Shown one piece after another: positions 38,073 to 64,000 of a stretch of DNA of 64,000 bases. The DNA comes from an uncultured virus (IMG/VR IMGVR_UViG_2585428076_000002) (lineage: Duplodnaviria > Heunggongvirae > Uroviricota > Caudoviricetes): IMG/VR virus record IMGVR_UViG_2585428076_000002; one strand, given 5' to 3'. Each line of letters opens with the position of its first letter. Within the stretch, counting starts at the first letter, position 1. Under the pieces are notes generated by a model, which saw only the letters and a list, made by a program, of their open reading frames with translations, was not told the DNA's origin and searched no databases. The translations under genes and the position numbers were made by a program.

Positions 38073-38086
38073 GGTCTATCCCTCCT

Positions 38087-39562: not shown

Positions 39563-39577
39563 TTGGCGATTCCTCCT

Positions 39578-40458: not shown

Positions 40459-40461
40459 GGG

Positions 40462-40893: not shown

Positions 40894-40895
40894 AA

Positions 40896-41519: not shown

Positions 41520-41547
41520 AAGGGCCTCCTAAATGGGGCAACGACGG

Positions 41548-41685: not shown

Positions 41686-41697
41686 AATCAGCCCTCC

Positions 41698-42111
41698 TTA
41701 CACGGGCTGGACGGCATTGTCGCCCAGCGCAATCGCACAGGTGGCTTCGCACTTGGGAGACGTGCCGCCGGTGCAGTTCACGGTGACGGTAATCTTGATG
41801 AACTTCTTACAGCCCGCAAGGTCAAGGTCGAGGTTGTGCAGCTCGTTGCCGGACTTGTCGACGGTGAGGGTGATAGCGCCCTCGCCATCGGCAGTGTGGT
41901 CAACGAACACATCTTTGTCCTCGACAGCGGTATAGCTGCCGCTCTGAGTGTCGCACTCAGTAACGGCAATCTTCACGGTGATTCCGGTAGGATCGCCTGT
42001 GGGTGCGCCGAGGGACACAGCGAGAACCCCCGAAAGGAATCTCTCGCGGTCGATGGCGTCCCCGCTCTTATAAGGAATCACTTTGGTGTTTTGGATGAGT
42101 TCTCTTTTCAT
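41698..42111 (-). CDS. Putative capsid decoration protein
   Basis: 137 aa beta-rich ORF directly after the major capsid gene. Confidence 0.55.
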   Translation of the reverse strand: MKRELIQNTKVIPYKSGDAIDRERFLSGVLAVSLGAPTGDPTGITVKIAVTECDTQSGSYTAVEDKDVFVDHTADGEGAITLTVDKSGNELHNLDLDLAGCKKFIKITVTVNCTGGTSPKCEATCAIALGDNAVQPV

Positions 42112-42130
42112 GTTCAGTTACCTCCTCACT

Positions 42131-43660: not shown

Positions 43661-43678
43661 TTCAAATTCCTCCTTGTG

Positions 43679-44404: not shown

Positions 44405-44439
44405 ACGGTTTTCCTCCTTTCCTCAGAGTTTAGGGCATC

Positions 44440-46557: not shown

Positions 46558-46565
46558 TTCACACC

Positions 46566-48035: not shown

Positions 48036-48447
48036 CTACCTCCGAATCTCTCTCAGGCAGGTAGATCTGAACTTGCGGCTGAACAGAAACCGGTGTGCCG
48101 GTTATCTTCGCCTCGACCGCTTTTCGGTCGTTGAAGAAATCACCGCCGTAGACTTTGAGCGCATAAATGATAGCGGTCGTGTCCCCACTGGACACCCGCT
48201 CCATTAACTTGTTTTGGCACATCGCCACAACAGACAGGCGCCCCGCTTTGATTGCCTTTTCCAAAGCGGGGTGCTCCTTTTGGAGTTTTTGCAGCGTCCG
48301 TCGCGTGATGTCAAATACGTCGGCAATCTCCTCCATAGACTTGCCCTGCATAGACAGAGACTGGATGATGGCGAGATTGTTTTCTACCTCACCGGCTTCT
48401 ACCCACTGTTCAAACAAGTCCTTTCTCTGACGCTTGGCATCAGACAT
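47998..48447 (-). CDS. terS: Terminase small subunit-like HTH protein
   Basis: EIADVFDITRRTL HTH, GDTTAIIYALK; immediately upstream of terL. Confidence 0.7.
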   Translation of the reverse strand: MSDAKRQRKDLFEQWVEAGEVENNLAIIQSLSMQGKSMEEIADVFDITRRTLQKLQKEHPALEKAIKAGRLSVVAMCQNKLMERVSSGDTTAIIYALKVYGGDFFNDRKAVEAKITGTPVSVQPQVQIYLPERDSEVGDAREKKDGKNQ

Positions 48448-49834
48448 ACCTCTCCGCTACCTTTTCGAGCAGCTCGCGCATCAGACCACCGTGCTTGTTG
48501 TGCTTAAAGCCGCCGGGGTACTCGATGTTCAGCTCTTTTTCCAGATACTCCTCGTAAACTTCCGTCGGCAACTGCTTGGGTAGCGAGCAGGCGCAGTAGA
48601 TGTAGCCAGCGTTGCAGGCGAGTACCGCTACACTGTCGAAGTAGTTTTCGAGGAGGGCGACAAAGCTCTCACGGGTGTGGAACTTCTGCTTGAAAACGAT
48701 GCCGTTTGTCACGCCGAGGGTGTAATTCTTGTCGTCCAGATACCAGAGACAGTCACCAGCCCCGGCAGACAGCTTCGTCTTGTCGTATGCCTTTTCAACG
48801 TAGGCAAGGTTGCGGGTGCAGGTAATCAGCGTACCCGTGGATTTCAAGACGGCGTTGCAGGTCGTAAGCACGGCCTTTTCAAACTCATCGTCCACTACGG
48901 AGTTGATAACCGCCTCCAACACGCAGTAGTCAAACAGCCCGTGGGCCTTGACCTGCTTCTCGGCGTTGAGGATGTTGGCGATGATGCCTTTCATATCCAG
49001 CTTGTTCGCGCCTTTCACCATCAGGGACGGCTCGTAGGCGTGGATATTGTAGCCCTTAGACTTGAGCATCTTCGGGTAAGCCATTCGGCCCGCGCCGATG
49101 TCGATAAGGCTGTCCGACTTCTGCAAGCGGGGGATGACATACTTCTCATACAGAACAGAGGCGTTGGATTGCCGGCCATCGGTACTCAGGCGCTTAGGCT
49201 GCGCCAAGAACTGGTGGTAGGTCTTAACGCCGAGGTTGTCGAAGTTGTACTTGCCGTACTCTATGCCCATGCACTCAAGGAACTCGGCAACGTCCTCGTT
49301 CGGGATAGCATAGCTCAGAACGCCGTAGCCCAGCTTCTTGGAGCAGTAGGCGTATTCAGCGTTAAGAATGACATTCCCATCCCCGTCGGTCACGACGCTG
49401 CCCCATTCTCCGTAGCGGGACATCAACTTCGTGATTTCGGAGCAGATGAGCACATTCTTCGGCTCGCTCTCAATGTGTACCTTGTCGGACGGGCAGTAGT
49501 GGTAGCCGCCCACCGTGAACTCCTCAAGGCGAACGGAAGTCTTGCTCGTCTCGATGGAGTTGTGCATGAGGTTGAACAGGATCTCGTCCTGCAAATTCGG
49601 GCTATTGATTCTGATGCACGGCAGATATTCCAGCCCAATCGCCGTCGCAGCTTTCTTTCGCTGATGGCCGGCGGTAATCACGTTATTGGTGGCGTTGACG
49701 ATGAGCGGCTTCACCATACCGAAACGGCGAATGCTGTGCTGCAACGCCTCTAACGCCTCCGGGGTAATGGAGCGGGGGTTGTACTCAGACCCCGTGACCT
49801 CCCCGATAGGCACTTTCTCTACGAAATCAATCAC
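48440..49834 (-). CDS. ParB-like domain fused to a class I SAM-dependent methyltransferase
   Basis: YNPR..SIRRFG.VKPLIV..AGHQR; LIDIGAG, AYEP, LEAVINSV. Confidence 0.8.
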   Translation of the reverse strand: MIDFVEKVPIGEVTGSEYNPRSITPEALEALQHSIRRFGMVKPLIVNATNNVITAGHQRKKAATAIGLEYLPCIRINSPNLQDEILFNLMHNSIETSKTSVRLEEFTVGGYHYCPSDKVHIESEPKNVLICSEITKLMSRYGEWGSVVTDGDGNVILNAEYAYCSKKLGYGVLSYAIPNEDVAEFLECMGIEYGKYNFDNLGVKTYHQFLAQPKRLSTDGRQSNASVLYEKYVIPRLQKSDSLIDIGAGRMAYPKMLKSKGYNIHAYEPSLMVKGANKLDMKGIIANILNAEKQVKAHGLFDYCVLEAVINSVVDDEFEKAVLTTCNAVLKSTGTLITCTRNLAYVEKAYDKTKLSAGAGDCLWYLDDKNYTLGVTNGIVFKQKFHTRESFVALLENYFDSVAVLACNAGYIYCACSLPKQLPTEVYEEYLEKELNIEYPGGFKHNKHGGLMRELLEKVAERYV

Positions 49835-50690
49835 GGTTCTCCACTCCTTTCAGAAGATAGTCGGCAAAGCTGCCGCTCAGGATTGCACCGGAATCAATGT
49901 ACTCCTGATACTTGGCGTTCATGCGGTCAAGCTCCACCTGAGAGATGAAGAACGACACGTCGCCAAAGCGGAACTGGCAGAACGGCAGGACCGCCTTAGA
50001 TTCTTTTTTCTTAGGCTCGCCGTCGTCAGCAGCGGGAGCCACGCTCTCCACAGCAGGAGCAGCGGGGCTGTCGGCAGTCGCAGGCGCGGGAGCAGGGGTG
50101 TCGGCATGGCTCACAGGTTCGTGGTACGAAACCTCCGGTGCGCCAATTTCATCATCACCGCCCTCAACTGCATCATTTTCCGCACTGATGATGGAGTTGC
50201 TGTCGATTGTGTGGACGGTAGGTTTCTTGGGCTTTGGCCTTTCGTTGACGCCCATAAAGTTGAACGCGGGGATTTTGATTTCGGCCTGCTCAGGCTCGAT
50301 GTCAAATACCTCCGTAGTCAGCTCAAAGCGTTCCAGCAAGAGCTGGTTTTCGTCGAGCGTCAGGTCAACGAGGGAAAGTTCCTCCTTGAGCTTCTCGAAG
50401 TCCCAATCGCTGTATTCGCTGGTCTTGTTGTCCACCAGACGGAACAGGTTGATCTGCTCATCAGTCAGCTCGTCCGCTACGATACAGGGGACAGTCTGAA
50501 TACCCATCTCGCGGCAGGCGCGCACACGAGTGTGGCCGGCGACGATGGTGTAATTCATGTCCACAACAACAGGGAACAGGAAACCGAACCGCTCGATACT
50601 GTACTTGACCTTTTCAACCGCGAGGTCGTTGTTGCGCGGGTTGTTTTCGTAATCTCTCAGTCGAGAGACGGAAATCTCTCTGATATTCAT
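49827..50690 (-). CDS. ParB/Srx N-terminal domain protein
   Basis: YENNPRNND..SIERFGF..IVAGHTR..DNKTSE. Confidence 0.85.
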   Translation of the reverse strand: MNIREISVSRLRDYENNPRNNDLAVEKVKYSIERFGFLFPVVVDMNYTIVAGHTRVRACREMGIQTVPCIVADELTDEQINLFRLVDNKTSEYSDWDFEKLKEELSLVDLTLDENQLLLERFELTTEVFDIEPEQAEIKIPAFNFMGVNERPKPKKPTVHTIDSNSIISAENDAVEGGDDEIGAPEVSYHEPVSHADTPAPAPATADSPAAPAVESVAPAADDGEPKKKESKAVLPFCQFRFGDVSFFISQVELDRMNAKYQEYIDSGAILSGSFADYLLKGVENRD

Positions 50691-51214
50691 TCTGCCTCAC
50701 CTCCTGTCAGGAACATGACAAAGCCCAGATAGGTTTTGTTCTTGCTGATGTAGTCGTCGTAAACCGCTTTCAGGCGGGCGTACTCGTCCTCGGTGATAGG
50801 CAGCTCATTGTTGCCGAAAATGAGGAACTTGTTGTCCTTGAAGAACTTGCGGTCACGGTTCGGGGTAAAGAACGTGGTCTTGAAGTCAAGGCCGATGCCG
50901 CTCAGCTCCTGATGCAGCTTGCCGACATCCCACGTAGAATACTCGTGGCTCTTATTGTCGATGATACGAGCCAGCTTTGCGTCCTCCTCGGACAGATTCT
51001 GAACGATGCAGGGTACTTCCTCCATCCCCAGCTGCTTGGCAGCTTTCAGGCGGGTATGCCCCGCGATGATGACGTTGTTCGGGTCAATCGTGATGGGGTT
51101 CAGGAACCCAAACTCACGGATACTCTCGGCGACTTTTGCCACGCCCGCGTCATTCCGTCGGGCGTTTCCCTCATACTCGATGAGGTCGTCAACCCTCTTG
51201 TAGACAATCTCCAT
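50687..51214 (-). CDS. ParB/Srx N-terminal domain protein
   Basis: YEGNARRND..SIREFGF..IIAGHTRLKAA..DNK. Confidence 0.85.
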   Translation of the reverse strand: MEIVYKRVDDLIEYEGNARRNDAGVAKVAESIREFGFLNPITIDPNNVIIAGHTRLKAAKQLGMEEVPCIVQNLSEEDAKLARIIDNKSHEYSTWDVGKLHQELSGIGLDFKTTFFTPNRDRKFFKDNKFLIFGNNELPITEDEYARLKAVYDDYISKNKTYLGFVMFLTGGEAE

Positions 51215-51240
51215 GTTTCGTCCTCCTTGTAACTGAGCAT

Positions 51241-51275
51241 AAAAAAAGGGAGCTGCACACACTCGTACAGCTCCC
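51241..51275 (-). terminator. Intrinsic terminator after metK
   Basis: gggagctg / cagctccc stem with a T7 tail on the - strand. Confidence 0.7.
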
Positions 51276-51295
51276 ATGTTTTACTGTATTAGGTT

Positions 51296-52090
51296 TTAGA
51301 ACAGGCCCCACTCGGCGAACGCCTCGAAGCCTCCCGCGTCCTTGATGAACTTGCGGGCGATTTCCACGATTTCGTGGTAGGGCTTTCCGTCAATCTCATC
51401 GTCTCCGATGGCGCAGCACAGCTCCACCGGCTTGCCGGTTTCCTGTGCCTTGAGAAAAGCGTAGATGTTGACGGACACATCAGCTTTGGACAGGTCCTTG
51501 CCATGCAGCCCACCACCGGTCACAGAATCAGCCATATCGGAGCCGAGCTTGCGGTTGGTGGCGCCTGTGTCCACGTCCGTACCGCCAGTCCAATCGCCGA
51601 GCGGGTTGATTTCGGCGGTGGGGTACAGCTGCTCGATGTCAGCCCTCGCAGCGTTGCTCTGGCAGATGATGAGCTTATCCCCGCTCAGAATGTATTTTCC
51701 GTCGCAGGGGTACTTCTGGTAAATGTCGCGGGCAATCGCGGAGAGCGTCTTCTGCTCGTCCGTGAGCGGCATTCCCTTGAAGATGCCGTTATCGCCACAG
51801 CGGAAACCGGCCTGCTGGTTATCAGCGAGGTGGGTGTCCTGCGGAACGATGCAGAGGTCGATTTGCACGAACCCCGCAATACGGTGGATGGCATTGTGGA
51901 TCGCCCTCAGCACCTCTGGCCGGAGCATGGGGGCGGAAGTCTCAACGATGGCGTGGCACACACCATGCCCGATGAGAACCTCAACTGCAACTTTGGGGTC
52001 ATCCTGAACCTGATAGGCCAAGTCCACGATAGCGCCGGCAATCCTGTCGGCGATTTTGTCCGGGTGGGACGGGTTTACTTTCTCAATCAT
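51296..52090 (-). CDS. metK: Short phage-type S-adenosylmethionine synthetase
   Basis: EKVNPSHPDKIADRI, GDNG, INPLG.W.GG..VDTGATNRK, GGGLHGKDLSKAD. Confidence 0.85.
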   Translation of the reverse strand: MIEKVNPSHPDKIADRIAGAIVDLAYQVQDDPKVAVEVLIGHGVCHAIVETSAPMLRPEVLRAIHNAIHRIAGFVQIDLCIVPQDTHLADNQQAGFRCGDNGIFKGMPLTDEQKTLSAIARDIYQKYPCDGKYILSGDKLIICQSNAARADIEQLYPTAEINPLGDWTGGTDVDTGATNRKLGSDMADSVTGGGLHGKDLSKADVSVNIYAFLKAQETGKPVELCCAIGDDEIDGKPYHEIVEIARKFIKDAGGFEAFAEWGLF

Positions 52091-52094
52091 GGTA

Positions 52095-52931
52095 TCAATT
52101 CCTTTGCTTGATTTTTTCGTTGCCGTTCAGCGGAGGCCCAAGCAGGTCACAGTCCGCGTCAGGCGGGTCCTGAACGTAGCCGTAGTGGTTTGCGTAACAA
52201 TAGGCGCAACCGTTGCGGCAGGTGCTGTATGCGCCAATATCGACGCTCTCAACGCACTGGCACAGCCCGCGCTGATTGCGGTCTTTCGGTTTGTCAACGC
52301 CGAACATCTTGCCGTCTACGCAGCTGGAATGGGGCAGCCCCAGTTCCTCCGCACAGGAGGAGAGGACAATCCCGTGCTGGGCGGCTATCTCGGATAGCTG
52401 CTGCGCCAGCTCTGTCTGCTGCTCTGTTGTGAGCGGCTGGATATTCAGCGGTCTGAGGTCTACCGTGCGGTACGAATCCACGAAACTCATAACGGCCTTT
52501 GAGGTGTAGCCCTCCAATTCCTCCGCGATTTTCGTGAACGCCCGAATGTGGTAGTCCCAAGTGTAGCGGTCATTCAGGAATACCGGGTCATATCGCCAGA
52601 TGGCTTTATCAGCCCCGATTCTCTTGAACGCCGGTATCACGACCTCATGCTTGTCGGGGATGTTCTTCTCAACGTCCCGACCATAGGGTGTGATGGTGTA
52701 CTGGAAATAATATTTGAATGCGTCCAGCTCGTGAATCCTGTTGAGCATAGGCGCGGCATTCTTAGTCCAAAAAACGAACCCGTCTACTTTGTCGGGCGTG
52801 AGTGAAACACGCCCGACTTGTAGAGGGTTGTATGGGTTTCTAAGGAGGACAAATCCTTTCCCAACACGGTTGTAAAACCACTCGGAAAACAGTGCCGGGA
52901 TGTCAGTCCGCCTGCTTGCGCTAACGATCAT
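52095..52931 (-). CDS. DUF1848-family (radical SAM-related) protein
   Basis: MIVSASRRTDIPA, FWTKN, WRYDP, C.C..S.DIG.Y.TC..GC.YCYAN. Confidence 0.85.
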   Translation of the reverse strand: MIVSASRRTDIPALFSEWFYNRVGKGFVLLRNPYNPLQVGRVSLTPDKVDGFVFWTKNAAPMLNRIHELDAFKYYFQYTITPYGRDVEKNIPDKHEVVIPAFKRIGADKAIWRYDPVFLNDRYTWDYHIRAFTKIAEELEGYTSKAVMSFVDSYRTVDLRPLNIQPLTTEQQTELAQQLSEIAAQHGIVLSSCAEELGLPHSSCVDGKMFGVDKPKDRNQRGLCQCVESVDIGAYSTCRNGCAYCYANHYGYVQDPPDADCDLLGPPLNGNEKIKQRN

Positions 52932-53398
52932 AACGGCATCCCATCCTTTAGGTAGTTTGCGAATATCCAGTTGCGGCAGGACCGCTGCTCTTTGGTGTAG
53001 TTCCCCGGAGGGTTCGGCACGTAATCCCAGAAGTGGATGCGGCGGGCATTCGTGATGTGCAGCTTGATTCTGTCGTTCTCAACTCTGACTTCGGAATTGC
53101 TGTCAGGCACGAATGCCACATGGGTGTTCAGCTCCCACACAAAGCCGTCGCTCAAACCGCAAAGGTAGTATGCTTTGGCGTGTGGGTGCTGCTTGACGAT
53201 GATGTCAACGACGGCGTTGGACTTGTGCAGCGTTCCGTAATAGACGCGGTTGTCCTTGTCGCCGATGAAACATTTTGCGCAGCACTGCGATATATCCACG
53301 TTGCGGATGTCTCGGAGCCAGAAGAAGTTGCACTTCTTCAAAATCTCCAAGTGCAAGTGCATGGGCGCGTGCTTAATTATAAAATCCGACGGTATCAT
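52928..53398 (-). CDS. Hypothetical protein, paralog 3 of the three-member family
   Basis: Same motifs as 5101-5559 and 19160-19594. Confidence 0.8.
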   Translation of the reverse strand: MIPSDFIIKHAPMHLHLEILKKCNFFWLRDIRNVDISQCCAKCFIGDKDNRVYYGTLHKSNAVVDIIVKQHPHAKAYYLCGLSDGFVWELNTHVAFVPDSNSEVRVENDRIKLHITNARRIHFWDYVPNPPGNYTKEQRSCRNWIFANYLKDGMPL

Positions 53399-53422
53399 TT
53401 TATCACTCTCCTATATGACGGG

Positions 53423-53830
53423 TCAATGACAGCTTTGTGACACGACGGCCACCTCCGCTATCTCGGGGTTTTGCGCCTGAAAAAACTCCCCAAGCGCGTA
53501 AAGTATCGTCTCACAAGCCCCCGGCAGAGCAGGGTGGAATGCAAAGCCACACCCGGACATCGCGCTCTTGACCGCGACAAACTCACGGTCAAAGCCGCTC
53601 ACACGGGTTCTGGTGGCTTTCATTCTGCGCCCGTGGTCATCAAAGCTCTCAAACAGGGCGTGGGAGAGCGGGTTGCCCGCGCTCACTGATTCGCCCACCG
53701 TCAGCTTTGCGAGGGTGATTTCATAGCCGCCCGGAATCGAACCGGTCAGTGTGAACGATGAGACGTTCGTTACATAACTCGGCAGCGGATTCAGCCCGTC
53801 GTAGGGCTGCGGCTCAAAGTTTTTAATCAT
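53423..53830 (-). CDS. Hypothetical protein
   Basis: 135 aa, AAGGAGG RBS. Confidence 0.65.
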   Translation of the reverse strand: MIKNFEPQPYDGLNPLPSYVTNVSSFTLTGSIPGGYEITLAKLTVGESVSAGNPLSHALFESFDDHGRRMKATRTRVSGFDREFVAVKSAMSGCGFAFHPALPGACETILYALGEFFQAQNPEIAEVAVVSQSCH

Positions 53831-54104
53831 TTTGTTCTACCTCCTTATCTTTCAACTGCTCACGCAGATGTTCACGCAATTCCTGACGGACCATCGCGGC
53901 CTCAACGTCATTGTGCGTAGCGTTCTCAACAAGTACCTGCCAACTGCCGTCGCTCGTCTTGAATGTGTGAACTTTCCGCTTTGCGCGGAGAGCACTCACC
54001 AGATCCACCGTGTATTTCAGAACACAGCAGACCAAAATCAAAAAGCCAAGCCAAGCCAAATCCACGGGCTGGAAAAGATAAACTTCAAAAACTCCATTAC
54101 TCAT
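53823..54104 (-). CDS. Hypothetical membrane protein
   Basis: N-terminal hydrophobic helix. Confidence 0.6.
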   Translation of the reverse strand: MSNGVFEVYLFQPVDLAWLGFLILVCCVLKYTVDLVSALRAKRKVHTFKTSDGSWQVLVENATHNDVEAAMVRQELREHLREQLKDKEVEQND

Positions 54105-54384
54105 CTTCCTCCAATTTCAGCCGAGCTTCAAGCTCGGTGATGCTCTGCAAAAACGCCATGCGGCAGGACAGCTCGCTTTCCTCGACCGCCACGCGCAGAC
54201 TTTTCAGAGCCTCCGCTACCGGCGTGTCAAAACTGTACTTCTGGAAGACCACGCCTCTCCGGTCCTCTGTGGTAAAAATCTCAAACGCATCACCCTCTCG
54301 AATGCCGAGGCTCCTGCGAACTTCGCGCGGGATGACAACCCTGCCGAGGTCGTCAATTCTGCGGATTATACCTGTTGCTTTCAT
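54097..54384 (-). CDS. AbrB/SpoVT-family DNA-binding protein
   Basis: MKATGIIRRIDDLGRVVIPREVRRSLGIREGD. Confidence 0.9.
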   Translation of the reverse strand: MKATGIIRRIDDLGRVVIPREVRRSLGIREGDAFEIFTTEDRRGVVFQKYSFDTPVAEALKSLRVAVEESELSCRMAFLQSITELEARLKLEEDE

Positions 54385-54400
54385 CGCACTGTTCCTCCTG

Positions 54401-55102
54401 TCATAATTCGTATTCTTTGTGGTGGGCAGTCTTGCCCTTATATTTGACCGAGGGCTTGACCCAAACCACCTTGCCGGACTTGTACCGGCGCAGGTGGCCT
54501 CGGACGTTGACCTCGTGGTCGGGTTTGGTGTAGCCGCGCTTCGCCTGTTCGGGCTTTACCAGTGCCGTGCTGTCGAAGTCAGTCACGGTGTAAATGCGGC
54601 GAATGAGCGGCTGCCGCACCTGCGCTGTGCGCTTTTTCTTCTTGTGCTTGGCAGGGCGGCGCTCAATGCGCTGCTCAACTTTGACCTCCTCCCGGTAGTA
54701 AGCCATGAACAGCATGAGCGCATGGTACTTCCGGGCCTCTTTCCTGCACGTGTCATCCATCGAGAGGAGAACACTGAGCAGTTCCTGATCCACAACCGGC
54801 TGACTGCCCATCGGGGCGATACGGCGGTTCCTGATTTCCGTAGTGGCAGGGTCATAGTCAAACATCACAACCGGCGGGAGGTTCGGCTTCACGGTGATGT
54901 AGACCGCCATCTCCACCCAGCTGCCCTTGCTCTCGAACGTGAATTCGATTTGCTCCTCGCAAAGCTCCACCACACCCGATTCCATCGGAGCCAGAAACTT
55001 CTCGCGGTCGAGCCATTTGAAGTTGTCAAAATACCAATCCAGCACCCGCTCCATGCGAGCGTTGCTCGTGACGATAATGCGGTCAGCTGTGTTGCGGTTC
55101 AT
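54401..55102 (-). CDS. Hypothetical protein
   Basis: 233 aa; C-terminal VRGHLRRYKSGKVVWVKP motif seen in phage early proteins. Confidence 0.7.
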   Translation of the reverse strand: MNRNTADRIIVTSNARMERVLDWYFDNFKWLDREKFLAPMESGVVELCEEQIEFTFESKGSWVEMAVYITVKPNLPPVVMFDYDPATTEIRNRRIAPMGSQPVVDQELLSVLLSMDDTCRKEARKYHALMLFMAYYREEVKVEQRIERRPAKHKKKKRTAQVRQPLIRRIYTVTDFDSTALVKPEQAKRGYTKPDHEVNVRGHLRRYKSGKVVWVKPSVKYKGKTAHHKEYEL

Positions 55103-55104
55103 CG

Positions 55105-55281
55105 TCAGCCCTCCTTTCCCTCGAACTGCCTGTGGTAGAAATCTGATAGAATGCTTTTTGCTGCGAGAATTCCCTGCTTGTAGCCCTCCTCGTACTTGAA
55201 ATTACCGCTCCGACCATACGGGTTGTTCTCGGCTTTCCGGGTGAGCAGGTCTTGCAGCATTTCGTATTGCCACTTAGTCAT
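55105..55281 (-). CDS. Small hypothetical protein
   Basis: GAGGAGG RBS, operon packing. Confidence 0.55.
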   Translation of the reverse strand: MTKWQYEMLQDLLTRKAENNPYGRSGNFKYEEGYKQGILAAKSILSDFYHRQFEGKEG

Positions 55282-55912
55282 GCCATACCTCCTCAACGAA
55301 AGCGCCGTTCTTATCGACCCACACATTCCTGCCGCCGAGCTTCGCAATCCGGCAGTCCTTACTGCGCATCTCCTCAGCTTTTTCTGCGGCGGGGTCGTGC
55401 CACTGCAATCCGCGACTTTTGTAGAGCGGAATCCAATGCTCGCTGTAAAAATCGTACCCTGCGCCGTCGATGCCGAAGAAATAGCCCCACTCCTCGTGCT
55501 GGTAAATGCGGAACCCGCAGTCGGACATCACCCGAATACCATCCGCATACCCAAGCCAGTAGTCGTCGCAGGAATCGCCAAAGCTCCACATCGTTCCCCA
55601 CATTGGGAGCGTGTCTTCGTCCACGACTTCCAAATTGTCAGGCTCCACGAGAATGGACGGGCCGCCGTCCAGATCCACCCGATACTTGTTGAGGTCTGCG
55701 GCATACGCCACGATTTCGCCGAGGTGTTCCAGCGTGTCGCAGCTGTCAGGCAGGTCAAAAACGTGAACTCTGCTGCCGGCGTGAGGGAGGGTGAGTTCCT
55801 CCCACTCGTCGGGAGCCGCCCGCATGAGCCGCTCAATCATGCTCTGCGGGATAGCGTTGAACTCGCTGACCCACTTGTGGGCGGCATCGCTAATCGTCAT
55901 GCCTTTAATCAT
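55274..55912 (-). CDS. Hypothetical protein
   Basis: 212 aa; FGIDGAGYDFY..HWIPLY motif. Confidence 0.7.
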   Translation of the reverse strand: MIKGMTISDAAHKWVSEFNAIPQSMIERLMRAAPDEWEELTLPHAGSRVHVFDLPDSCDTLEHLGEIVAYAADLNKYRVDLDGGPSILVEPDNLEVVDEDTLPMWGTMWSFGDSCDDYWLGYADGIRVMSDCGFRIYQHEEWGYFFGIDGAGYDFYSEHWIPLYKSRGLQWHDPAAEKAEEMRSKDCRIAKLGGRNVWVDKNGAFVEEVWHD

Positions 55913-56138
55913 TCTTCTGCACCTCCTCGTAACAGGCCGGACAATATATCAAATCACTGCCCTGCATCATCTTCATGTACTCTTTTCGCCCATGCCGGTC
56001 TATGAAACACTTGGAGCAAAATGTGTCTCCGCATTTTTCGCAGCCCCACATCTCGCCGTGAACGAGATCGCTGGCGTCCCATTCCATCTCAAACCCGCAT
56101 AGGTCGCAGGTGTAGGTATCCTTTATGCAGTTATACAT
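55905..56138 (-). CDS. Small zinc-finger protein
   Basis: Four CxxC pairs. Confidence 0.7.
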   Translation of the reverse strand: MYNCIKDTYTCDLCGFEMEWDASDLVHGEMWGCEKCGDTFCSKCFIDRHGRKEYMKMMQGSDLIYCPACYEEVQKND

Positions 56139-56139
56139 A

Positions 56140-56511
56140 TCACCCGAACCTCCTCATTCGCATTTTGGAAAGGGCCTCACCGAGTTCCGGCCAGCTACAC
56201 CAGCAGTTGTAGCCGCCCGTCCAGTCTTTGTCATGCGCCATTGTGCGGTACAAAACGTGGTGATACCACTCGGACGAGCAGAACCGCACATCGCTGATGG
56301 CAACGTATACGAACTCGCCGGTTGTCTCGTCCCGCAGCACTGCCGAGAACTCATAATGTCCGGGGATGAATCTGTGCAGCGCAAACCCCGCCGCCTTTGC
56401 CTGTTTCCGCAGGTCCGCTCTTGCCTCCCGCTGGAAAGCGTCGTAGTCGCTCCCGGTTTCACAACCGAAAGAAAATGTGTGGTGCAGCCACTTACCCATT
56501 CTGTTCGCCAT
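56140..56511 (-). CDS. Hypothetical protein
   Basis: HYEFS...YVAISDVR...LYRT...KDWTGG.N motif; GGAGG RBS. Confidence 0.65.
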   Translation of the reverse strand: MANRMGKWLHHTFSFGCETGSDYDAFQREARADLRKQAKAAGFALHRFIPGHYEFSAVLRDETTGEFVYVAISDVRFCSSEWYHHVLYRTMAHDKDWTGGYNCWCSWPELGEALSKMRMRRFG

Positions 56512-56670
56512 TTTGGTCCACCTCCGCACCCGAATTTAACTTGACCGACCGGAGTATCAGCAGCAAGTCGTCTCGGGTTATGTTTTTCTCCACCAGCAAG
56601 GCGGTGAATTTGTCCATATCTTCCGTAGTTCCAATAGGGATGAATCTCCTGAAAATTACGTCGCTCATTT

Positions 56671-57309
56671 TTAATCGTCAACCTCCAATCTCATGGACCA
56701 CCGAGCGGCTTTCTCTCTGATAAACCGCTCAACTTCTTCACGGTCAAGCCCCAGCGCTGCCGCACAAAGAACAACGTCGGCGAACTCCTCGTTCAGCCTG
56801 TGCGACGCCTCGCTTGTGCTCACTGGCGTGGGGTTGCTCTTGTCTATCGTCCTGCGCAGTTTCAGCGCCGCTTGGGACAGCTCCGCTGCCTCCTCTGCCA
56901 TGCCTGCCAACAACTCGCAGCAGCCAAGCAGGGTGTGAATTTCTGTGAGTTCATGCCCCCAATCTTCAAGAGCCTTTTCGATAGAGCTGCCAAACGCAAG
57001 CTGCTCAGGAATCACATCAACCCTGATGTCGCCCAGAAATGTGTCATCGCAGCAATCTCCGGGTTCGACGGGGTAGAAGTCTGTCAGCATGATCTTTCGT
57101 TTCAGGTCTCTCGACGGGATAAAGCAATTTTGAACCGACGGCACAGTGCCATACCCGGTATCGGCGGGCCAGCCGACAGAGAAGTCTCTGCCGCTCTGCC
57201 GAAGAACATAACAAAGCTCGTTCAGCGAGAGAGGATTGCTCTTTGCAATCAACGGGTACTGGCTGATTTCGTTGCTGAACCACGCTTTGAATTCCGTGAT
57301 GTCTTTCAT
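56671..57309 (-). CDS. Protein with C-terminal MazG-like NTP pyrophosphatase domain
   Basis: AEEAAELSQAALK...EEFADV motif; AAGGAG RBS. Confidence 0.65.
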   Translation of the reverse strand: MKDITEFKAWFSNEISQYPLIAKSNPLSLNELCYVLRQSGRDFSVGWPADTGYGTVPSVQNCFIPSRDLKRKIMLTDFYPVEPGDCCDDTFLGDIRVDVIPEQLAFGSSIEKALEDWGHELTEIHTLLGCCELLAGMAEEAAELSQAALKLRRTIDKSNPTPVSTSEASHRLNEEFADVVLCAAALGLDREEVERFIREKAARWSMRLEVDD

Positions 57310-57335
57310 AAGTACCAACTCCTTTGCAAAATAGA

Positions 57336-57363
57336 AGAAACCCGCCATTTCTGGCGGGTTTCT
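57336..57363 (-). terminator. Terminator hairpin just inside the prophage A right end
   Basis: agaaacccgcca / tggcgggtttct. Confidence 0.7.
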
Positions 57364-57365
57364 GT

Positions 57366-57408
57366 ATATAGGCAAATTCGGCTATCCATCAATTTCATGT
57401 GCAATTCC
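57366..57408. other. att-like site C (prophage A/immA junction), core AA at 57391-57392
   Basis: 31/43 ungapped identity to site B; predicted core falls in the Ile codon of immA HEI. Confidence 0.75.
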
Positions 57409-57696
57409 CCAATGCGTACGACAAGGATTATCCTCTTGCTCATCAAAAAGAATGACAGAACAGCGAGGATAATCTACCACGCAAGCCCCGTTGAACTGCT
57501 CGCAGGTAAAATTACTTAGTGGACGATTGGTTATCTGCGCAAAGTTCTGCACAGAATCAATCACAATCGGACGATTAAATTGGAGATCGGTAACATTCAC
57601 ATGTAAGGTGGAAATAGTCTGTGCCAACAATAGATCAGTTGCAACATTTTGCGCTTTGTCAAAATCAGGTCTCCGAGTGTCTGCTTCGAGTTTCAT
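57382..57696 (-). pseudogene. immA: ImmA/IrrE-family metallopeptidase truncated within HExxH
   Basis: Follows an XRE repressor; ends RTHWGIAHEI|DG-stop where HExxH is expected. Confidence 0.75.
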
Positions 57697-58364
57697 TAGT
57701 CCTCCTTGGGAATTCCAATAGCGTCAAGATAAATATCAATAGCATCATGGAAGTTTTCGATCAATCGAGTACGTTGTTGTCCGGGTATTTTTTCTAGATG
57801 TCTAGCGAGTAATTTTATATTGTTATCATTTTCAACTTCTACATCATGATTATTATTTTGGTGAAGTTGTGAAGCCTCGTCATTACATTTAAGGTCCATG
57901 TTTGCTGGTTTATAAGGGCTGTGATAGATTTCATCTATTTTAATATTCAAGTAAGAAGCGATTTTTTCAGCTAATTTATATCGAACAGGATATAAGCCGG
58001 ATTCAAGGTTTATCAGATCTTCCTCGGTGAGAGCAAGATCACAACTCATTTTTTGTGCAGATATATTTAGATCTTCTCGGATTTGTTTAATAGTGCGACC
58101 ATATAGTAACTTTGTGTCGCAAGACGATGAATTGTCATGTGGTGTTTCGAGGAAGTCTTGCATGTTTTTAAAAGAAGTTTTTCCCAGTAGATAATCTACG
58201 CTTACCTGAAAAAAATTAGCTACTTTTGCTAATTTGTCGCCAGATGGAATGGTATTATCCCATTTTCTGATAGTTCCATTACCAAAATCCATCTTCCGCT
58301 CGAGAGAGGCCAATGTTTCGCCTCGTTCGGAACACATGTTTTTAATCTTTTCAACAAGAGTCAC
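57696..58364 (-). CDS. XRE repressor with two HTH domains (ImmR-like)
   Basis: LASLERKMDFGNGTIRKW..VSVDYLLG and IKQIRE..LINLESG..KIASYL. Confidence 0.8.
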   Translation of the reverse strand: MTLVEKIKNMCSERGETLASLERKMDFGNGTIRKWDNTIPSGDKLAKVANFFQVSVDYLLGKTSFKNMQDFLETPHDNSSSCDTKLLYGRTIKQIREDLNISAQKMSCDLALTEEDLINLESGLYPVRYKLAEKIASYLNIKIDEIYHSPYKPANMDLKCNDEASQLHQNNNHDVEVENDNNIKLLARHLEKIPGQQRTRLIENFHDAIDIYLDAIGIPKED

Positions 58365-58620
58365 GATAATCCCTCCTGCATTCCTGGAAGAAATTCGTCT
58401 ACAGACTATTGACTTTTAAAAAGAAGCATGGTAATATTAGCCTATAGACGAAAGTTCTTAGAGGATATGCACAAATGTGTAGTGTGTATGATATGTAGTA
58501 TGTAATATATAGAAGAATTATAGAGCAATCGTCTGGCATCGAAAGGATTGCTATACCCTTATAATAGCTTATAAGCTAATCAAAGTCAATAGCAAATTTT
58601 CTATTACTGGAGGTGAGTCA

Positions 58621-58917
58621 ATGAAATTGGATAAAATCATAGCACTGTGTTCGGCAGAAGGATCAAATCTTTCCCGTTTGGAAAGAGAATGCGGGCTTTC
58701 GAATGCAGCGATCCGTCGCTGGGAGAACAGTTCGCCCAGTGCAGAGAACCTGCAAAAGGTCGCAGATCATTTTGGGGTGTCTGTGGATTACCTGCTTGGA
58801 CGCGACGACTATGATATTTCGCAGGAAGCATTGGAGTGTGCTAAGCAGTACAGTGAACTCTCCAAGGAAAAACAGCAGCTGGTACAGATCTACATGAGCG
58901 TGATCTCAAAGCAATAA
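58621..58917 (+). CDS. XRE HTH regulator (cro position)
   Basis: LSRLERECGLSNAAIRRW..VADHFGVSVDYLLG. Confidence 0.8.
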   Translation: MKLDKIIALCSAEGSNLSRLERECGLSNAAIRRWENSSPSAENLQKVADHFGVSVDYLLGRDDYDISQEALECAKQYSELSKEKQQLVQIYMSVISKQ

Positions 58918-58922
58918 GGAGT

Positions 58923-59564
58923 GTGATGTCTATGAATCATCTGGTATTTCTTACCCCGAACACGCAGGAGCCGTTTACCACTTCAGATGTGATCGCTGCG
59001 TTTGCCGGAATCCAACACCATACGGTGACGCGCCTGATTCAGCAGCATGAGGCCGACTTCAAAGAGTTTGGAATACTTCGATTTGAAATCGAAGAAATCA
59101 AGGGACGAGGACAACCTGCAAAGCGCTACCAGCTGAACGAAGAGCAGGCAACTTTGCTGATGACCTATCTCAAAAACACAGCACAGGTCAGGGCGTTCAA
59201 GAAAGAGCTGGTTCGCCAGTTCTACGCTATGCGTTTTGAGCTGTATAAAGTGCAGGCGGCCAAGATGGAGCGCCGGCCGGTGCGGGTCAGTATGACCGAT
59301 GCCATTAAGGCGCTGCCCGATAGTCCGCATAAGGCTATGAAGTACGGACAGTACACAGACCTCGCGTATAAGTTGGCACTCGGCCGGACAGCAAGACAGC
59401 TGCGCAAAGACCGTGGTGCAGATAAGCACGCTGTTGCAAGCGACTACATGACCGCTGAAGAAATCTCGCTAGTTTCCGATGTCGAAAACAAGATTGGCGT
59501 ACTGATCGGCATCGGCATGGGCTATCAGGAAATCAAAGCTAAGCTGACGCGACGCATCATGTAG
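58923..59564 (+). CDS. Rha-family phage regulatory protein
   Basis: FTTSDVIA....H..V.RLI; LNEEQATLLMTYLKNT..V..FK..LV.QF. Confidence 0.85.
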   Translation: MMSMNHLVFLTPNTQEPFTTSDVIAAFAGIQHHTVTRLIQQHEADFKEFGILRFEIEEIKGRGQPAKRYQLNEEQATLLMTYLKNTAQVRAFKKELVRQFYAMRFELYKVQAAKMERRPVRVSMTDAIKALPDSPHKAMKYGQYTDLAYKLALGRTARQLRKDRGADKHAVASDYMTAEEISLVSDVENKIGVLIGIGMGYQEIKAKLTRRIM

Positions 59565-59589
59565 TAAAGCTTAGAAGGGAGGAATCCAT

Positions 59590-59781
59590 ATGCCTTGCGA
59601 GCCGCAAGCCTACCGTGCCAATTTGGAACGGATCAAAGCGACCTATCCGGACAAGGAGATGTTAAACATAGGAGAGGTCAAGCGGTTTCTGGGAATTGAC
59701 CGCGAGGTAGTTAAGCGGCGATTCCCATTTCGAGAAAATTATATTTCAGTTGCCACACTGGCGTGGGAACTGAGCATTTAG
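59590..59781 (+). CDS. Small DNA-binding (excisionase-like) protein
   Basis: EMLNIGEVKRFLGID pattern; position. Confidence 0.55.
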   Translation: MPCEPQAYRANLERIKATYPDKEMLNIGEVKRFLGIDREVVKRRFPFRENYISVATLAWELSI

Positions 59782-59792
59782 AGGAGGATATT

Positions 59793-60092
59793 ATGAGTCA
59801 AAAAAGTGCAAAAGCTCTTCGGCGCATTGACCGGAGTAACGTCAACCTGGGCCTGCGCCTGGCGCGGCTGGAGGCCGATGTCCATGAGCTGAGAGCAAGC
59901 TGCAACGCGCTGGAGCATCAGACTAGAATGGACCGCGCGAGCAGCCAGAGCATCGGCCGGGAGCTGTCAATCGTATCGCGTGAGCAGCGCAAGCGGATGG
60001 TTAGCCGCCGCCGTATGGGCCTGCTGGTCGGATCGGCTGCGGTCATCATCTGCCTGATCGGCCTGTCGTTGAAGATCTTCGGGGTGCTGTGA
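59793..60092 (+). CDS. Hypothetical protein with C-terminal TM helix
   Basis: GAGGAGG RBS; hydrophobic C-terminus. Confidence 0.6.
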   Translation: MSQKSAKALRRIDRSNVNLGLRLARLEADVHELRASCNALEHQTRMDRASSQSIGRELSIVSREQRKRMVSRRRMGLLVGSAAVIICLIGLSLKIFGVL

Positions 60093-60559
60093 TGATGAAT
60101 TTATCTGCGGAAGACATCGCTTTTATTCAATCGTCCTACCGGGATGCTAAGTGTAAGTCTTCGCAGCGTAATAAGCTGCGTGAGCTGTATCCAGACATTG
60201 CACCAGCAAAGTTTGCTGAGCTGACTGGTACGTTGGTTTCAGATTGGGTGAAGGGTAAGAAGCTTGATACAGTAGACAAGCCCGCGCACGATCCGGTGCT
60301 GGACTGTTTGATCTTCCGCTCGTTCGACTTGATGGTTGAGCTTGCGCGAGACAAAGGGATTCCCATTGAAACCTGTTGGCGTGATGCGCTGAGCATGCTT
60401 GAGCGCCGGATAGCCAGCAAGCGTAAACAGATCGAGAACCATCCGGCGACTGAAGAATATGAGTTGATGATCGCGGCGATCCTGACCGCGGACGATCTGG
60501 ACACAAAGAAAAAGTGCCCTGCGGGAGTGCCATCCCAACAGAGCACAGATAGTAAGTGA
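60089..60559 (+). CDS. Hypothetical protein
   Basis: 156 aa, operon packing. Confidence 0.55.
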   Translation: MMMNLSAEDIAFIQSSYRDAKCKSSQRNKLRELYPDIAPAKFAELTGTLVSDWVKGKKLDTVDKPAHDPVLDCLIFRSFDLMVELARDKGIPIETCWRDALSMLERRIASKRKQIENHPATEEYELMIAAILTADDLDTKKKCPAGVPSQQSTDSK

Positions 60560-60596
60560 TTCACCTGTATGATACCCCGAAGGAGGGGGATTGTCA

Positions 60597-60785
60597 ATGG
60601 AACGTAAGATTTTAATCTCGGAATATTCCGACGGCACATTTCGCGCGATTGTCGATCAGGAAGAGAGTCAGGCAGAGATTCGGTACTGCGTAGAACCGAA
60701 CAATGAGATCGCGTTGGCCATTTCCGACCTCAAGCTGTTTGCTGATTTCGTGGCGGATCTGGCGCGAGAGGAGGCAACCGAATGA
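60597..60785 (+). CDS. Small hypothetical protein
   Basis: AGGAGG RBS; overlaps the ATPase start. Confidence 0.55.
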   Translation: MERKILISEYSDGTFRAIVDQEESQAEIRYCVEPNNEIALAISDLKLFADFVADLAREEATE

Positions 60786-62692
60786 ACACCATCATTTTGA
60801 AGTCCCTTGATCTGGACCATTTCAAGGGCATTCGCTCGCTGCACATTGATTTTGACGGCGGTCTAACCTCGATCTATGGCGACAACGCCACGGGCAAGAC
60901 TACAGTATACGATGCATTGACTTGGCTACTGTTCGGCAAGGACTCGAGCGGGAGCGCCAAGTTTTCCATCAAGCCGACCGGCATTCCCGGTGTTACGCCG
61001 ACGGTCACCGCCATCCTTGAGATCAACGGCGAACCTATGAAGCTGCGCAAGACGCTGCGTGAGAAGTGGTCGAAGCCCCGCGGCTGCGCGATCGCTCAGT
61101 ACGACGGCGATACGACCGAGTACACCATCGACGATGTGCCGCGCAAGGAAGGCGAGTACAAGCGCATGATCTCCGCTATCATCGACGAAGGCGTTTTCAA
61201 GATGCTGACCAATGTGCACGCTTTTGCGCGGGATTTGCCTTGGAAGGAACGTCGCAAGCAGCTGGCTGAGGTGTGTGGGTTGCCGGATGACAAAGCGATC
61301 CTTACCAGTGCGCCGCAGTTTGCCGAGCTGGCCGCGGCACTGGGTCGCCGGACGGTGGATGAGTACAAGTCCGTTCTGATGGCCGAGCGTAAGGGCGCAA
61401 ACAAGACGCTGGACAGTCTGCCCATCCGCATTGACGAGTGCGAGCGCCGCGCCCGCGAGCTGGATGTGTTGGACTATGACAAGGCGCAGGTAGACAAGGC
61501 CGACCTGGAACTGCGTAAGGGCGCTATCTTGGCTGACCTGTCCCGGTTGGATGGCGGCACGCTGCTGACCGCTGCGGAGGCTGATGTCAAGCATTATGAG
61601 GCGGAGTTGAAAGCACTGGACGCAGAGAATGCCGCGCACCGGGCAAGTCAGAATGTGCCTGTACAGGATGAACGGCCGGCTATTCAACGTAAGTTGGGAG
61701 AACTCTCTTGGACGTTTAACAACCTGAACAAGATGATGGATGACTGCGAGGAGAACGTCCTCAAGGCCGAAGAACAACTGGAGGAATACCGGGCGGTATG
61801 GCGCAGCATTCAGGCAGAGACCTTTACCGGCGATGTTTGCCCGACTTGTGGTCAGAAACTCCCGGCTGTCGAGGCGGCACAGGCCAAGGCTAAGTTTGAA
61901 CAGGACAAGGCTGGGCGGGAAGCGCGACTGGTAAAGGACAGCGATCTGGTTAAGCAGAATCAAGCCGCGCAGAAGGCGCAGTACGCGGAGCTGAAAGAAA
62001 AGGCCGCGCAGGTGCGCGACGAATATGAGCAGATCAAGGCACAGCTGGATGCCTATATTCCGCCGGAAGCACCGGTCATTGAGGATTTACCCGGTTACGC
62101 GGAACGCCGCGCAAAGGTAATGCAGTACATCGAAGAGGCCCGCGAAAAGATCGGTCGTATCCAGTCCGATCAGCAGGCCGAGCGTGACCGGCTGAACAGC
62201 CAGCTGTCCCAGCTGAATATAGAACTGACGCGCGTGTCTCAGGTGTTGGCAGCCAAGGCGCAGCTGGACGAGACCCGCGCTCGTGTGGATGAACTCAAGG
62301 CCGAGCAGCGCACACAGGCGGCAGCTCTTGAGGAAATCGACCGCAAACTTGCAATGTGTGAGGACTTCACCCGCTACCGTTGCCAATTTATCACCGATTC
62401 CGTGAATAGCCGGTTTAAGCTCGCCCGATTCCGACTGTTTGTCGAGCAGGTCAACGGCGGTGTGGCTGACTGCTGCGACGTGATGGTGGACGGCGTACCC
62501 TATGCCGATCTCAACAACGCTATGCAGATCAATGTCGGCCTGGACATCATCGGCACACTGTCCGAGCACTATGGCTTGCGTGTACCGCTGGTCGTGGATA
62601 ACGCTGAATCGGTCACCAGATTACAGGAAATCAACACGCAGGTGATTCGCCTGGTCGTGTCTGAACAGGATAAGGAGCTGAGAGTCGTATGA
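60782..62692 (+). CDS. SbcC/Rad50-like AAA ATPase with coiled coil
   Basis: FKG, Walker A GDNATGKTT, CPTCGQ zinc hook, VDNAES. Confidence 0.88.
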   Translation: MNTIILKSLDLDHFKGIRSLHIDFDGGLTSIYGDNATGKTTVYDALTWLLFGKDSSGSAKFSIKPTGIPGVTPTVTAILEINGEPMKLRKTLREKWSKPRGCAIAQYDGDTTEYTIDDVPRKEGEYKRMISAIIDEGVFKMLTNVHAFARDLPWKERRKQLAEVCGLPDDKAILTSAPQFAELAAALGRRTVDEYKSVLMAERKGANKTLDSLPIRIDECERRARELDVLDYDKAQVDKADLELRKGAILADLSRLDGGTLLTAAEADVKHYEAELKALDAENAAHRASQNVPVQDERPAIQRKLGELSWTFNNLNKMMDDCEENVLKAEEQLEEYRAVWRSIQAETFTGDVCPTCGQKLPAVEAAQAKAKFEQDKAGREARLVKDSDLVKQNQAAQKAQYAELKEKAAQVRDEYEQIKAQLDAYIPPEAPVIEDLPGYAERRAKVMQYIEEAREKIGRIQSDQQAERDRLNSQLSQLNIELTRVSQVLAAKAQLDETRARVDELKAEQRTQAAALEEIDRKLAMCEDFTRYRCQFITDSVNSRFKLARFRLFVEQVNGGVADCCDVMVDGVPYADLNNAMQINVGLDIIGTLSEHYGLRVPLVVDNAESVTRLQEINTQVIRLVVSEQDKELRVV

Positions 62693-63291
62693 AGTTAAAG
62701 GACAAGGTAAAGCCTGCTATCCCGCCGCTCGAAGCTGGCGTGTATATGGCGGTGTGCGTCGTGGTTGCCGATCTTGGCGATCAGTACAGTGAAAAGTTCA
62801 AGAAATCCAGTCGCAAGGTGGTTTTCTCGTTCGATATTCCCACGGAAACGGTTGAGGTCGACGGCGAGCAGAAGCCCCGCCAGCTGTCCAAACGCTGCAC
62901 CTTTTCCGTGAGCAAGAAGGGCAACTTGAATAAGATGCTGAATGCTTGGATGAATGCCAACATGAGTGAGCAGGAGCTTGGAGAACTCGACCTGTTTTCC
63001 CTGATCGGTCGGGGTTGCCAGATCCGCGTGACGGTCTCCGAGGATGGCGCACACAACAACATCGAGGATGTGATGGCATTGCCCAAGGGGATGCCTGCGC
63101 CGCAGTCCGATACCGCTCCCATTACTTATGACATTGACGAAGATGGATTTACCGGTGAGAAATGGGACGCGCTGCCGGCATGGATGCGTGAGGCCATTGA
63201 AAAGAGCGACCAGTATCAGCAGGACCCGCCGGACAAGCCGTTGGATATGCCCGCTGAATCCGCCGCACAGGAAGGGGCGTGCCCGATTTGA
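62689..63291 (+). CDS. Phage replication/recombination protein (putative ssDNA-binding)
   Basis: G.Y.AVC..V.DLG.Q motif; acidic C-terminus; position between ATPase and MBL nuclease. Confidence 0.6.
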   Translation: MKLKDKVKPAIPPLEAGVYMAVCVVVADLGDQYSEKFKKSSRKVVFSFDIPTETVEVDGEQKPRQLSKRCTFSVSKKGNLNKMLNAWMNANMSEQELGELDLFSLIGRGCQIRVTVSEDGAHNNIEDVMALPKGMPAPQSDTAPITYDIDEDGFTGEKWDALPAWMREAIEKSDQYQQDPPDKPLDMPAESAAQEGACPI

Positions 63292-63983
63292 CCTTTCGCA
63301 GTCTGGCCAGCAGCTCCAAGGGCAACGCCTATCTGGTGAGTGACGGCGAAACCGTCTTGCTCTTGGAATGCGGCCTGCCGTATAAGAAGCTGGCCGAAAA
63401 GTCTGGGTTTACCCTCATGGACACCGCCGCTTGCTTTGTGACCCACGAGCACAAGGATCATAGTCATGCAGCGGAACAGCTTGTAAAGCGCGGTATTCCG
63501 GTATTCATGTCTGAGGGCACCGCACGGGCGCTGGAACTGTGGGATGCTGAGATTATCGAACCCAATGTTCCGATCATGGTCGGGGCGTTTCGAGTGATGG
63601 CTTTCCGTGTGGCGCATGATGCAGCCGATCCGGTCGGTTATCTGATTGATGACACACGCACCGGCGAGCGCCTGATGTTCGCAGCAGATACTCGCAGCCT
63701 GTCGTATATCGTCCCGCACCTGACCTATATTGCCGTCGAGTGCAATTACGAAGAAAGCCTTCTGGCTGCATCCCAGCGCATCCCGGAGAGCCTGAAGAAT
63801 CGCATCCGGCACAGCCATTTTGAGGTCGAGGACGTGATCCGGTGGCTAAAAAAGCAGGACTTGTCTCACGTCCTGACCATCTACTTACTGCACCTGTCTG
63901 CTGGGAATAGCCGTGCTGCGGCATGGCAGACACGTTTCGTCCGGGAGTTTCCGGGCGTTGACATTCAGATTTGCAAGGAGTAA
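63279..63983 (+). CDS. Metallo-beta-lactamase-fold hydrolase/nuclease
   Basis: LASSSKGN, THEHKDH, HDA, ECNY, LLHLS. Confidence 0.9.
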   Translation: MPDLTFRSLASSSKGNAYLVSDGETVLLLECGLPYKKLAEKSGFTLMDTAACFVTHEHKDHSHAAEQLVKRGIPVFMSEGTARALELWDAEIIEPNVPIMVGAFRVMAFRVAHDAADPVGYLIDDTRTGERLMFAADTRSLSYIVPHLTYIAVECNYEESLLAASQRIPESLKNRIRHSHFEVEDVIRWLKKQDLSHVLTIYLLHLSAGNSRAAAWQTRFVREFPGVDIQICKE

Positions 63984-64000
63984 AAGACCATGAACGAAAA

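Follow-up and report, generated by a model that had tools for sequence, protein, structure and literature searches.

A prophage of 57,575 bp, referred to as phage A, is inserted in an immA-like gene of a second prophage, phage B, and the break lies within the codons of the HExxH motif. Very probably, this represents a chance hit in immA by a phage with a promiscuous serine integrase, which likely blocks the induction of phage B until phage A excises. The DNA analysed is a 64,000-nt stretch from an uncultured member of the Caudoviricetes (IMG/VR IMGVR_UViG_2585428076_000002), hereafter the window, which corresponds to positions 121485-185484 of contig C33 in the genome G000. Coordinates given without a contig name refer to the window, and the main features are collected in Table 1.

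Results

Phage A splits the immA-like gene of phage B

The ORF at 57382-57696 on the minus strand is located directly behind the repressor gene of phage B (57696-58364) and ends in GIAHEI, followed by DG and a stop codon, as stated in the initial annotation; the break coincides, as also noted there, with the core dinucleotide of its site C. Three junction look-alikes are present in the genome, at 57366, 18121 and G000:C33:121305. The outer two share the TT of the minus strand and a 25-bp arm, which is inverted in one relative to the other; the second copy of dinucleotide and arm is located at G000:C33:121298-121324, 160-186 bp to the left of the window. Removal of the 57,575 bp and one core yields a 203-aa frame with the sequence HEIGH and a downstream E-x-EA-x-x-FAA motif, that is, precise excision of phage A on paper restores the immA reading frame exactly, in agreement with what had been proposed from the junction. 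The same core and inverted arm at both ends, together with the exact rejoining of the frame, confirm that prophage A lies inside the immA-like gene of phage B, within the HExxH codons.

The 5' ORF continues into the attachment arm, where it meets the stop at 57382. No fused start was seen for the 3' half, whose sole in-frame ORF starts 24 codons past the break, behind both histidines. Of the motif, the 5' piece retains H and E only, and translation of the 3' piece cannot start before the second histidine for want of a start codon there. No complete zinc site is therefore predicted in either piece. The 3' half alone matches PF06114 (Peptidase_M78; E 4.6e-9, above the cut-off). The terminator-like hairpin inside the right end of phage A, placed 30-55 bp from the junction in the initial annotation, was located by a consensus scan at 27-54 bp and is predicted to cut the repressor transcript of phage B. 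At the left end of phage A, an outward sigma-70-like promoter could serve the downstream genes of phage B; in the consensus scan, no terminator-like site was found on the same strand between this promoter and the junction.

Table 1. Features of phages A and B around the nested insertion
Feature	Position	Strand	Remarks
Prophage A, part in window	1..57390		whole element of 57,575 bp, G000:C33:121300-178874; begins 185 bp left of window
Outward sigma-70-like promoter, left end of A	48..76	-	11/12 consensus; consensus scan only
Internal att-like site of A with GA core	6250..6300	+	P-arm/core/B-arm; pairs in geometry with 18121..18165
Internal att-like site B of A	18121..18165	+	P-type arm, TC core, B-type arm
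Large serine recombinase of A, 467 aa	19591..20994	+	about 20 kb from nearer (left) end
Terminator-like hairpin, right end of A	57336..57363	-	consensus scan only
Right attP-derived arm of A (25 bp)	57366..57390		site C of the initial annotation; supplies DG-stop
Crossover core	57391..57392		AA on +, TT on -; repeat at left end of A, G000:C33:121298-121299, outside window
Left attP-derived arm of A	G000:C33:121300-121324		outside window
immA 5' half, residues 1-102	57393..57696	-	up to H, E and I of HExxH
immA 3' half	G000:C33:120992-121297	-	second His, downstream Glu motif, HTH; outside window
Phage B, part in window	57393..64000		
Repressor of B, ImmR-like, 222 aa	57696..58364	-	two XRE-type HTH stretches; Pfam, PHROG
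Divergent Cro-like gene and Rha-family gene of B	58621..59564	+	Pfam, PHROG
Tyrosine integrase of B	C33:115462-116634	-	outside window

Junctions and empty site in metagenome contigs

Eight of 24 metagenome runs were compared with the junctions, four of them being possible sources of the DNA. Each junction is spanned in two of two possible-source runs by one contig without differences, the right one in X1 and X5 and the left one in X3 and X4. In all four other runs (X6, X7, X15 and X16, from three studies) the site is empty and one contig joins the immA halves; X6 and X7 also contain an A-like end that leads into other DNA, the gene of phage B being intact there. No excised form of phage A was seen in the four contig sets of the source strain, contigs being known to drop rare variants. 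The chance that the arrangement is an assembly chimera or a natural truncation, both considered in the initial annotation, is negligible. We found no support for it, although the spanning runs are not fully independent insofar as the DNA may derive from them. Against it stand both junctions in single contigs at a depth of 164-268 in runs of four studies, the matching arms and core at both ends of phage A and a length of phage A that is typical of its family (57-58 kb). In addition, uninterrupted homologues were found, and they do not end at HEIDG.

The intact gene belongs to the ImmA/IrrE family by sequence

The intact protein has twice the length of the half-ORF product, so that a search with the latter among proteins of similar length gave no matches; a search for longer proteins recovered the intact family. 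Six members of a protein cluster of ten are 203 aa long and 95.6-98.0% identical to the rejoined frame, and the same cluster holds 104-aa and 75-aa pieces identical to the two halves in the host genome of phage A. One intact 203-aa homologue is present on 52 contigs, and all 15 homologues from 163 family genomes are stop-free open frames of at least 198 aa. At the DNA level, a search of 60 relatives gave only matches to the Rha region or of terminator size. PF06114 is also annotated in two intact proteins (P0001 and P0002), and residues H100, E101, H104 and E119 are invariant in 9/9 aligned intact sequences. The AlphaFold model is weak (pLDDT 58); its best five Foldseek rows, for a possible IrrE/CapP fold, were PprI, IrrE and CapP with E values of at least 0.02, and a PDB sequence search gave no meaningful match. 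From sequence, the split gene of phage B is assigned to the ImmA/IrrE (Peptidase M78) family, with a predicted protease activity.

Phage B has an ImmR/ImmA-type control region

Phage B extends over G000:C33:115357-214049 between 46-bp tRNA-Pro repeats and is 41.1 kb long without phage A. In addition to its integrase, it has genes coding for terminase, portal, capsid, sheath, tape measure, baseplate, holin and amidase; no break is obvious among them. No match to the S24 autoprotease domain (PF00717) was found in phage A or B. The control region of phage B has the ImmR/ImmA layout, in which the protease gene is located behind an XRE repressor gene without S24 domain and divergent from a Cro-like gene, and this gene order is repeated in L156 and L157.

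Between immA and the integrase (L006:14736-18969), phage B carries cargo genes for three proteins with a copper-amine-oxidase N-domain and one DUF4041/T5orf172 protein. One of the former has a metallo-beta-lactamase fold and is presumably ComEC-like. The cargo at the right end (L008:6228-8819) includes a Panacea/SocA antitoxin and, next to it, a possible partner.

Phage A carries a single serine integrase and two internal att-like sites

Phage A codes for head, contractile tail and lysis proteins, DNA polymerase A and a diversity-generating element (DGR). The 467-aa serine recombinase is the only integrase found in it and has resolvase, recombinase and zinc-ribbon domains; DUF4368 gave no match at E <= 0.01. 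Its best named relatives are the integrases of phages phiFC1 and U153 (38-45%), and a search among representative proteins gave only relatives without names. The attP of phage A is symmetric, with two 25-bp arms round TT. Given that it is the only integrase in phage A and that the same arms occur at two internal sites, the recombinase most likely acts on these arms. The internal sites have different cores, GA and TC, and would thereby remain separate from the TT attP. No flipped form of the segment between them was found, with no exact match in viral contigs and the form seen here at 20/20 integrase-neighbour loci readable with both arms (32 examined), among them two contigs that carry a free attP. 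No directionality factor was recognised in phage A.

Several further features of phage A were observed. The TC site is kept about 1.45 kb upstream of the integrase gene in relatives of 76-100% identity. Similar strong promoter-like blocks are located at 31-104, 17746-17820 and 18616-18702; two of them precede a short ORF that ends at an att arm, and in the free form a terminator-like hairpin comes next. The DGR (25092-26836) comprises a reverse transcriptase, a template (26441-26577) and a variable repeat (26700-26836) at the end of a tail protein, and 17/17 of the differences between template and target are at A. No ImmA was found in phage A. Three paralogous Cys-rich proteins of 144-156 aa are encoded at 5101-5559, 19160-19594 and 52928-53398, one of them directly behind the repressor gene of phage A, the usual position of ImmA. 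Two of the paralogues were scanned and had no PHROG match, and no usable Atlas family was available for the gene behind the repressor, whose product is a candidate anti-repressor.

Relatives of phage A insert into many unrelated genes

Exact scans for the arm yielded 106 loci (viral, 6 + 14; metagenome, 55; genome, 31) with 110 arm rows; as the exact arm pattern was required, these numbers leave aside diverged relatives, which are possibly more specific. From the 110 rows, 12 with free attP (six contigs), two with fewer than 25 outside bases and 19 removed by hand were dropped, the latter being without homology to the ends of phage A or belonging to multi-copy intergenic repeats in Lachnospiraceae and Catonella genomes. 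The remaining 77 rows reduce to 72 different host flanks. Of these, 53 adjoin right ends and 19 adjoin left ends, which sets the number of other insertions at 53 or more. All 72 flanks have an AA or TT core, and only two weak pairs of similar flanks were found among them. Ends at least 90% identical to those of phage A adjoin 22 of the flanks. On six contigs both ends are present at a distance of 57-58 kb, and each of these contigs has a different attB. Named hosts of arm-bearing loci include Angelakisella, Scatomorpha, Pararuminococcus and Intestinimonas.

The suggestion that phage A targets a conserved motif in the induction gene of a competitor is not supported by this survey, in which 0/72 other flanks match ImmA (tblastn) and integrases at least 99% identical to that of phage A are found at three other unrelated sites. 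These integrases share contigs with other flanks at L121, L126 and L148 (99-100% identity), and a 93% identical one does so at L125. PF06114 was not found in any of the 70 junction-touching fragments scanned (86 found), 25 of which match Pfam; the targets named in this way include HsdS, HsdR, a methylase, RloB, ParA, ParB, Mob, two SLH and two FtsX proteins, AraC, MaoC and a sortase. Judged from these flanks, the integrase of phage A is multi-targeting.

Besides these insertions, one free attP has an AT core in place of TT (L012:1498-1527), and the core orientation is opposite in six of 34 close flanks. The multi-copy intergenic repeats with the same arm in Lachnospiraceae and Catonella are found at L074, L077-L081, L085-L087, L090, L092 and L095-L099, some of them in tandem about 67 bp apart. 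Another arm repeat, in L044, lies between genes which we take to resemble cas4 and cas1. A relative of phage A in L042:2-1498 interrupts a DnaE gene that bears an intein and likely belongs to another mobile element.

The HExxH codons resemble the loose target consensus

To score target sites, a matrix was built from the 72 half-sites, with the immA site left out. The immA site has a score of 10.3 and ranks 264th among 388,593 TT sites in the genome (top 0.07%); about 260 sites in the genome, nine of them in phage B, are as good. Six held-out paired attB rank from 0.007% to 9%. The codons for I-A-H-E-I-G-H supply preferred bases, namely CAT at four bases from the TT on either side and TGCAAT at a greater distance. 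The immA site thus fits the loose consensus because the codons of IAHEIGH mimic it, and since they form a pseudo-palindrome with the TT in the second isoleucine codon, the break falls at the centre of the motif. The motif DNA of 11/11 ImmA homologues (from 18 loci) lies within about the top 20% of site scores, above background, indicating that the hit in immA is not wholly random, but the required TT core is present in only one of the 11. Eight HE[ILVF]xH TT sites in G000 average -2.1, compared with -10.2 for all TT sites.

Discussion

In accordance with these scores, we propose that the integrase would join attP to any site loosely fitting G-A-T-x-R-T-x-T-G-C-A-W-T on each side of a TT, that the IAHEIGH codons may simply happen to offer such a pseudo-palindromic site, and that phage A most likely landed in the HExxH codons of phage B by chance. 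Of the interpretation put forward in the initial annotation, the insertion in these codons and the restoration of the frame on excision stand, whereas the targeting of the motif does not. It is very unlikely that phage A evolved to target the HExxH motif in the immA genes of competitors and thereby constitutes a reversible phage-on-phage switch. The break falls exactly in the motif, ImmA motif DNA scores high in all 11 homologues, HE[ILVF]xH TT sites score above the genome average, and elements which target other elements do exist, such as IME_oriT and the IMEs found in traG of ICEs (PMC5704250). However, none of at least 53 other events is in immA (95% upper bound 5.5%), 10 of the 11 homologues lack the TT core, all 15 homologues in the 163 family genomes are uninterrupted, and X6 and X7 contain the intact gene of phage B with an A-like end elsewhere. 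One might also speculate that the consensus of the A family has been shaped to favour AHExxH and mobile-element DNA, and that phage A gates phage B in such a way that B wakes only after A has exited and is re-armed by a non-lytic excision of A, but we regard this as quite improbable.

Insertion could also be loose but enriched, by preference or later selection, in mobile or defence genes, in which case immA would be one example of disabling co-residents. We are doubtful about this explanation. Among the Pfam-annotated target fragments, 13/25 are of mobile or defence type compared with 7/27 score-matched control sites, a sorting done by hand after the labels had been seen and with a control from one genome; the difference gives a Fisher p of 0.09, or 0.15 with four essential genes removed from the control, survival alone favours dispensable genes as targets, and the low GC of the real flanks (0.47) is matched by the control. 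Finally, the insertion could be real and have little effect on the induction of phage B because another ImmA or an anti-repressor substitutes for the split protein, phage B then being no more than an overloaded prophage too long for packaging as a whole. An intact second ImmA-like gene beside an HTH repressor gene at C20:104 kb, the Rha/anti-repressor-like gene of phage B and the action of MpaR in trans on several Listeria prophages (PMC6872733) argue for it. The second ImmA is distant, though, with 22% identity as compared to 39% for MpaR and its phage counterpart (PMC6872733), and phage B has no S24 domain; overall, this explanation appears rather unlikely.

In the reading that we favour, the split immA would give no complete protease and the repressor of phage B, being without a self-cleaving domain, would stay intact, so that phage B is likely silent until phage A excises. 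Proteases of the ImmA type act by cleaving the repressor encoded next to them, and in Listeria, where MpaR induces several prophages in trans and shares 39% with its phage counterpart, induction no longer occurs once MpaR is lost (PMC6872733). Similarly, disruption of immA abolished excision of a pneumococcal prophage, in which an ImmA-independent route also exists (PMC12637031). A second repressor and ImmA-like pair (L116:922-1977, C20:104 kb) was observed near tyrosine integrases. This is the one other intact immR-immA pair in the genome, and its ImmA is 22% identical in the alignment; phage B is likely locked unless this distant second ImmA stands in for the split one. The state may persist because silencing phage B protects both the host and phage A. 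Excision of phage A would restore immA exactly. In principle the insertion could be reversed, the arms and integrase of phage A being close matches to those found on contigs with free attP. Excision probably belongs to the lytic start of phage A, which would make it no benign toggle. Even on induction of phage B, the two phages together would measure 98.7 kb, far over the length of phage B itself.

Multi-targeting large serine recombinases with TT cores have been described (PMC10083194, Durrant et al. 2022; PMC13137831), and are defined by the presence of one 90%-identity cluster in more than three unrelated target genes (PMC10083194). With the immA site and the 99-100% (L121, L126, L148) and 93% (L125) identical integrases, that of phage A falls under this definition, and it shares with these enzymes the use of more than three unrelated genes by its relatives, the conserved TT core and the weak flanking consensus. 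Unlike them, it lacks DUF4368, which is common but not required in the main multi-targeting clade (63%; PMC10083194), belongs to a complete tailed phage and has its attP about 20 kb from the gene. In supplement file 3 of PMC10083194, cluster7947 corresponds by eye to the integrase of phage A (400 of the 467 residues compared). This entry gives the target genes as 'NA' and, as att sites, the tRNA-Pro site of phage B, a pairing that is apparently a nesting error in the published table. The names ImmA and IrrE were not seen in the text of these supplements, where the 'irre' strings viewed (four of eight) lie inside protein sequences; picture pages, which are outside this text check, may bear on the clade and target-enrichment claims.

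With its order of divergent cro, repressor and M78 protease genes, phage B resembles ICEBs1 with ImmR/ImmA, ImmAR-type prophages and the MpaR system of Listeria, and shares with ImmR/ImmA and MpaR systems the HExxH motif with a downstream Glu and a repressor without autoprotease (PMC6872733, PMC12637031, PMC11318856). It differs from ImmR/ImmA systems in that its protease gene is split by a prophage, its repressor has two HTH stretches and cleavage is predicted only. In the literature searched, whose coverage leaves out most subscription journals, no prophage inserted in immA was found. Like phi10403S in comK (PMC6872733) and gin in gerE (PMC5595907), phage A splits a gene that precise excision restores. 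Those elements are confined to one conserved site and excise under regulation without lysis, whereas the family of phage A uses many sites, and the conserved single target gene of active lysogeny was not found in it. Similar to IMEs in the oriT or genes of ICEs, phage A is nested in a functional part of a second mobile element, but it is a phage and not a mobilisable element. ICE-targeting IMEs recur at one site, with 53/64 in the origin of transfer (PMC5704250, PMC7563843), whereas the immA hit of phage A is single, and the recurrent use of the same gene that marks element-targeting elements was not seen (0/72 flanks in immA). Tn4451 is an example of a low-specificity serine-recombinase element (PMC5704250). 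Further background is given in PMC5883640, PMC12823448, PMC11318856 and bioRxiv 2022.05.11.491493.

Taken together, the attractive story of a targeted phage-on-phage switch is removed as unsupported, and a gut phage family emerges as a near-random insertional mutagen which uses a serine integrase without DUF4368. Its attP and target matrix are now defined from 72 natural flanks. The apparent nesting error represents a failure mode that may affect other entries of the public recombinase table. In addition, phage B, residing in a gut Clostridia host, is an otherwise intact prophage with a natural knock-out of immA. Intact alleles of the gene are known, and this makes ImmA dependence and rescue in trans directly testable.
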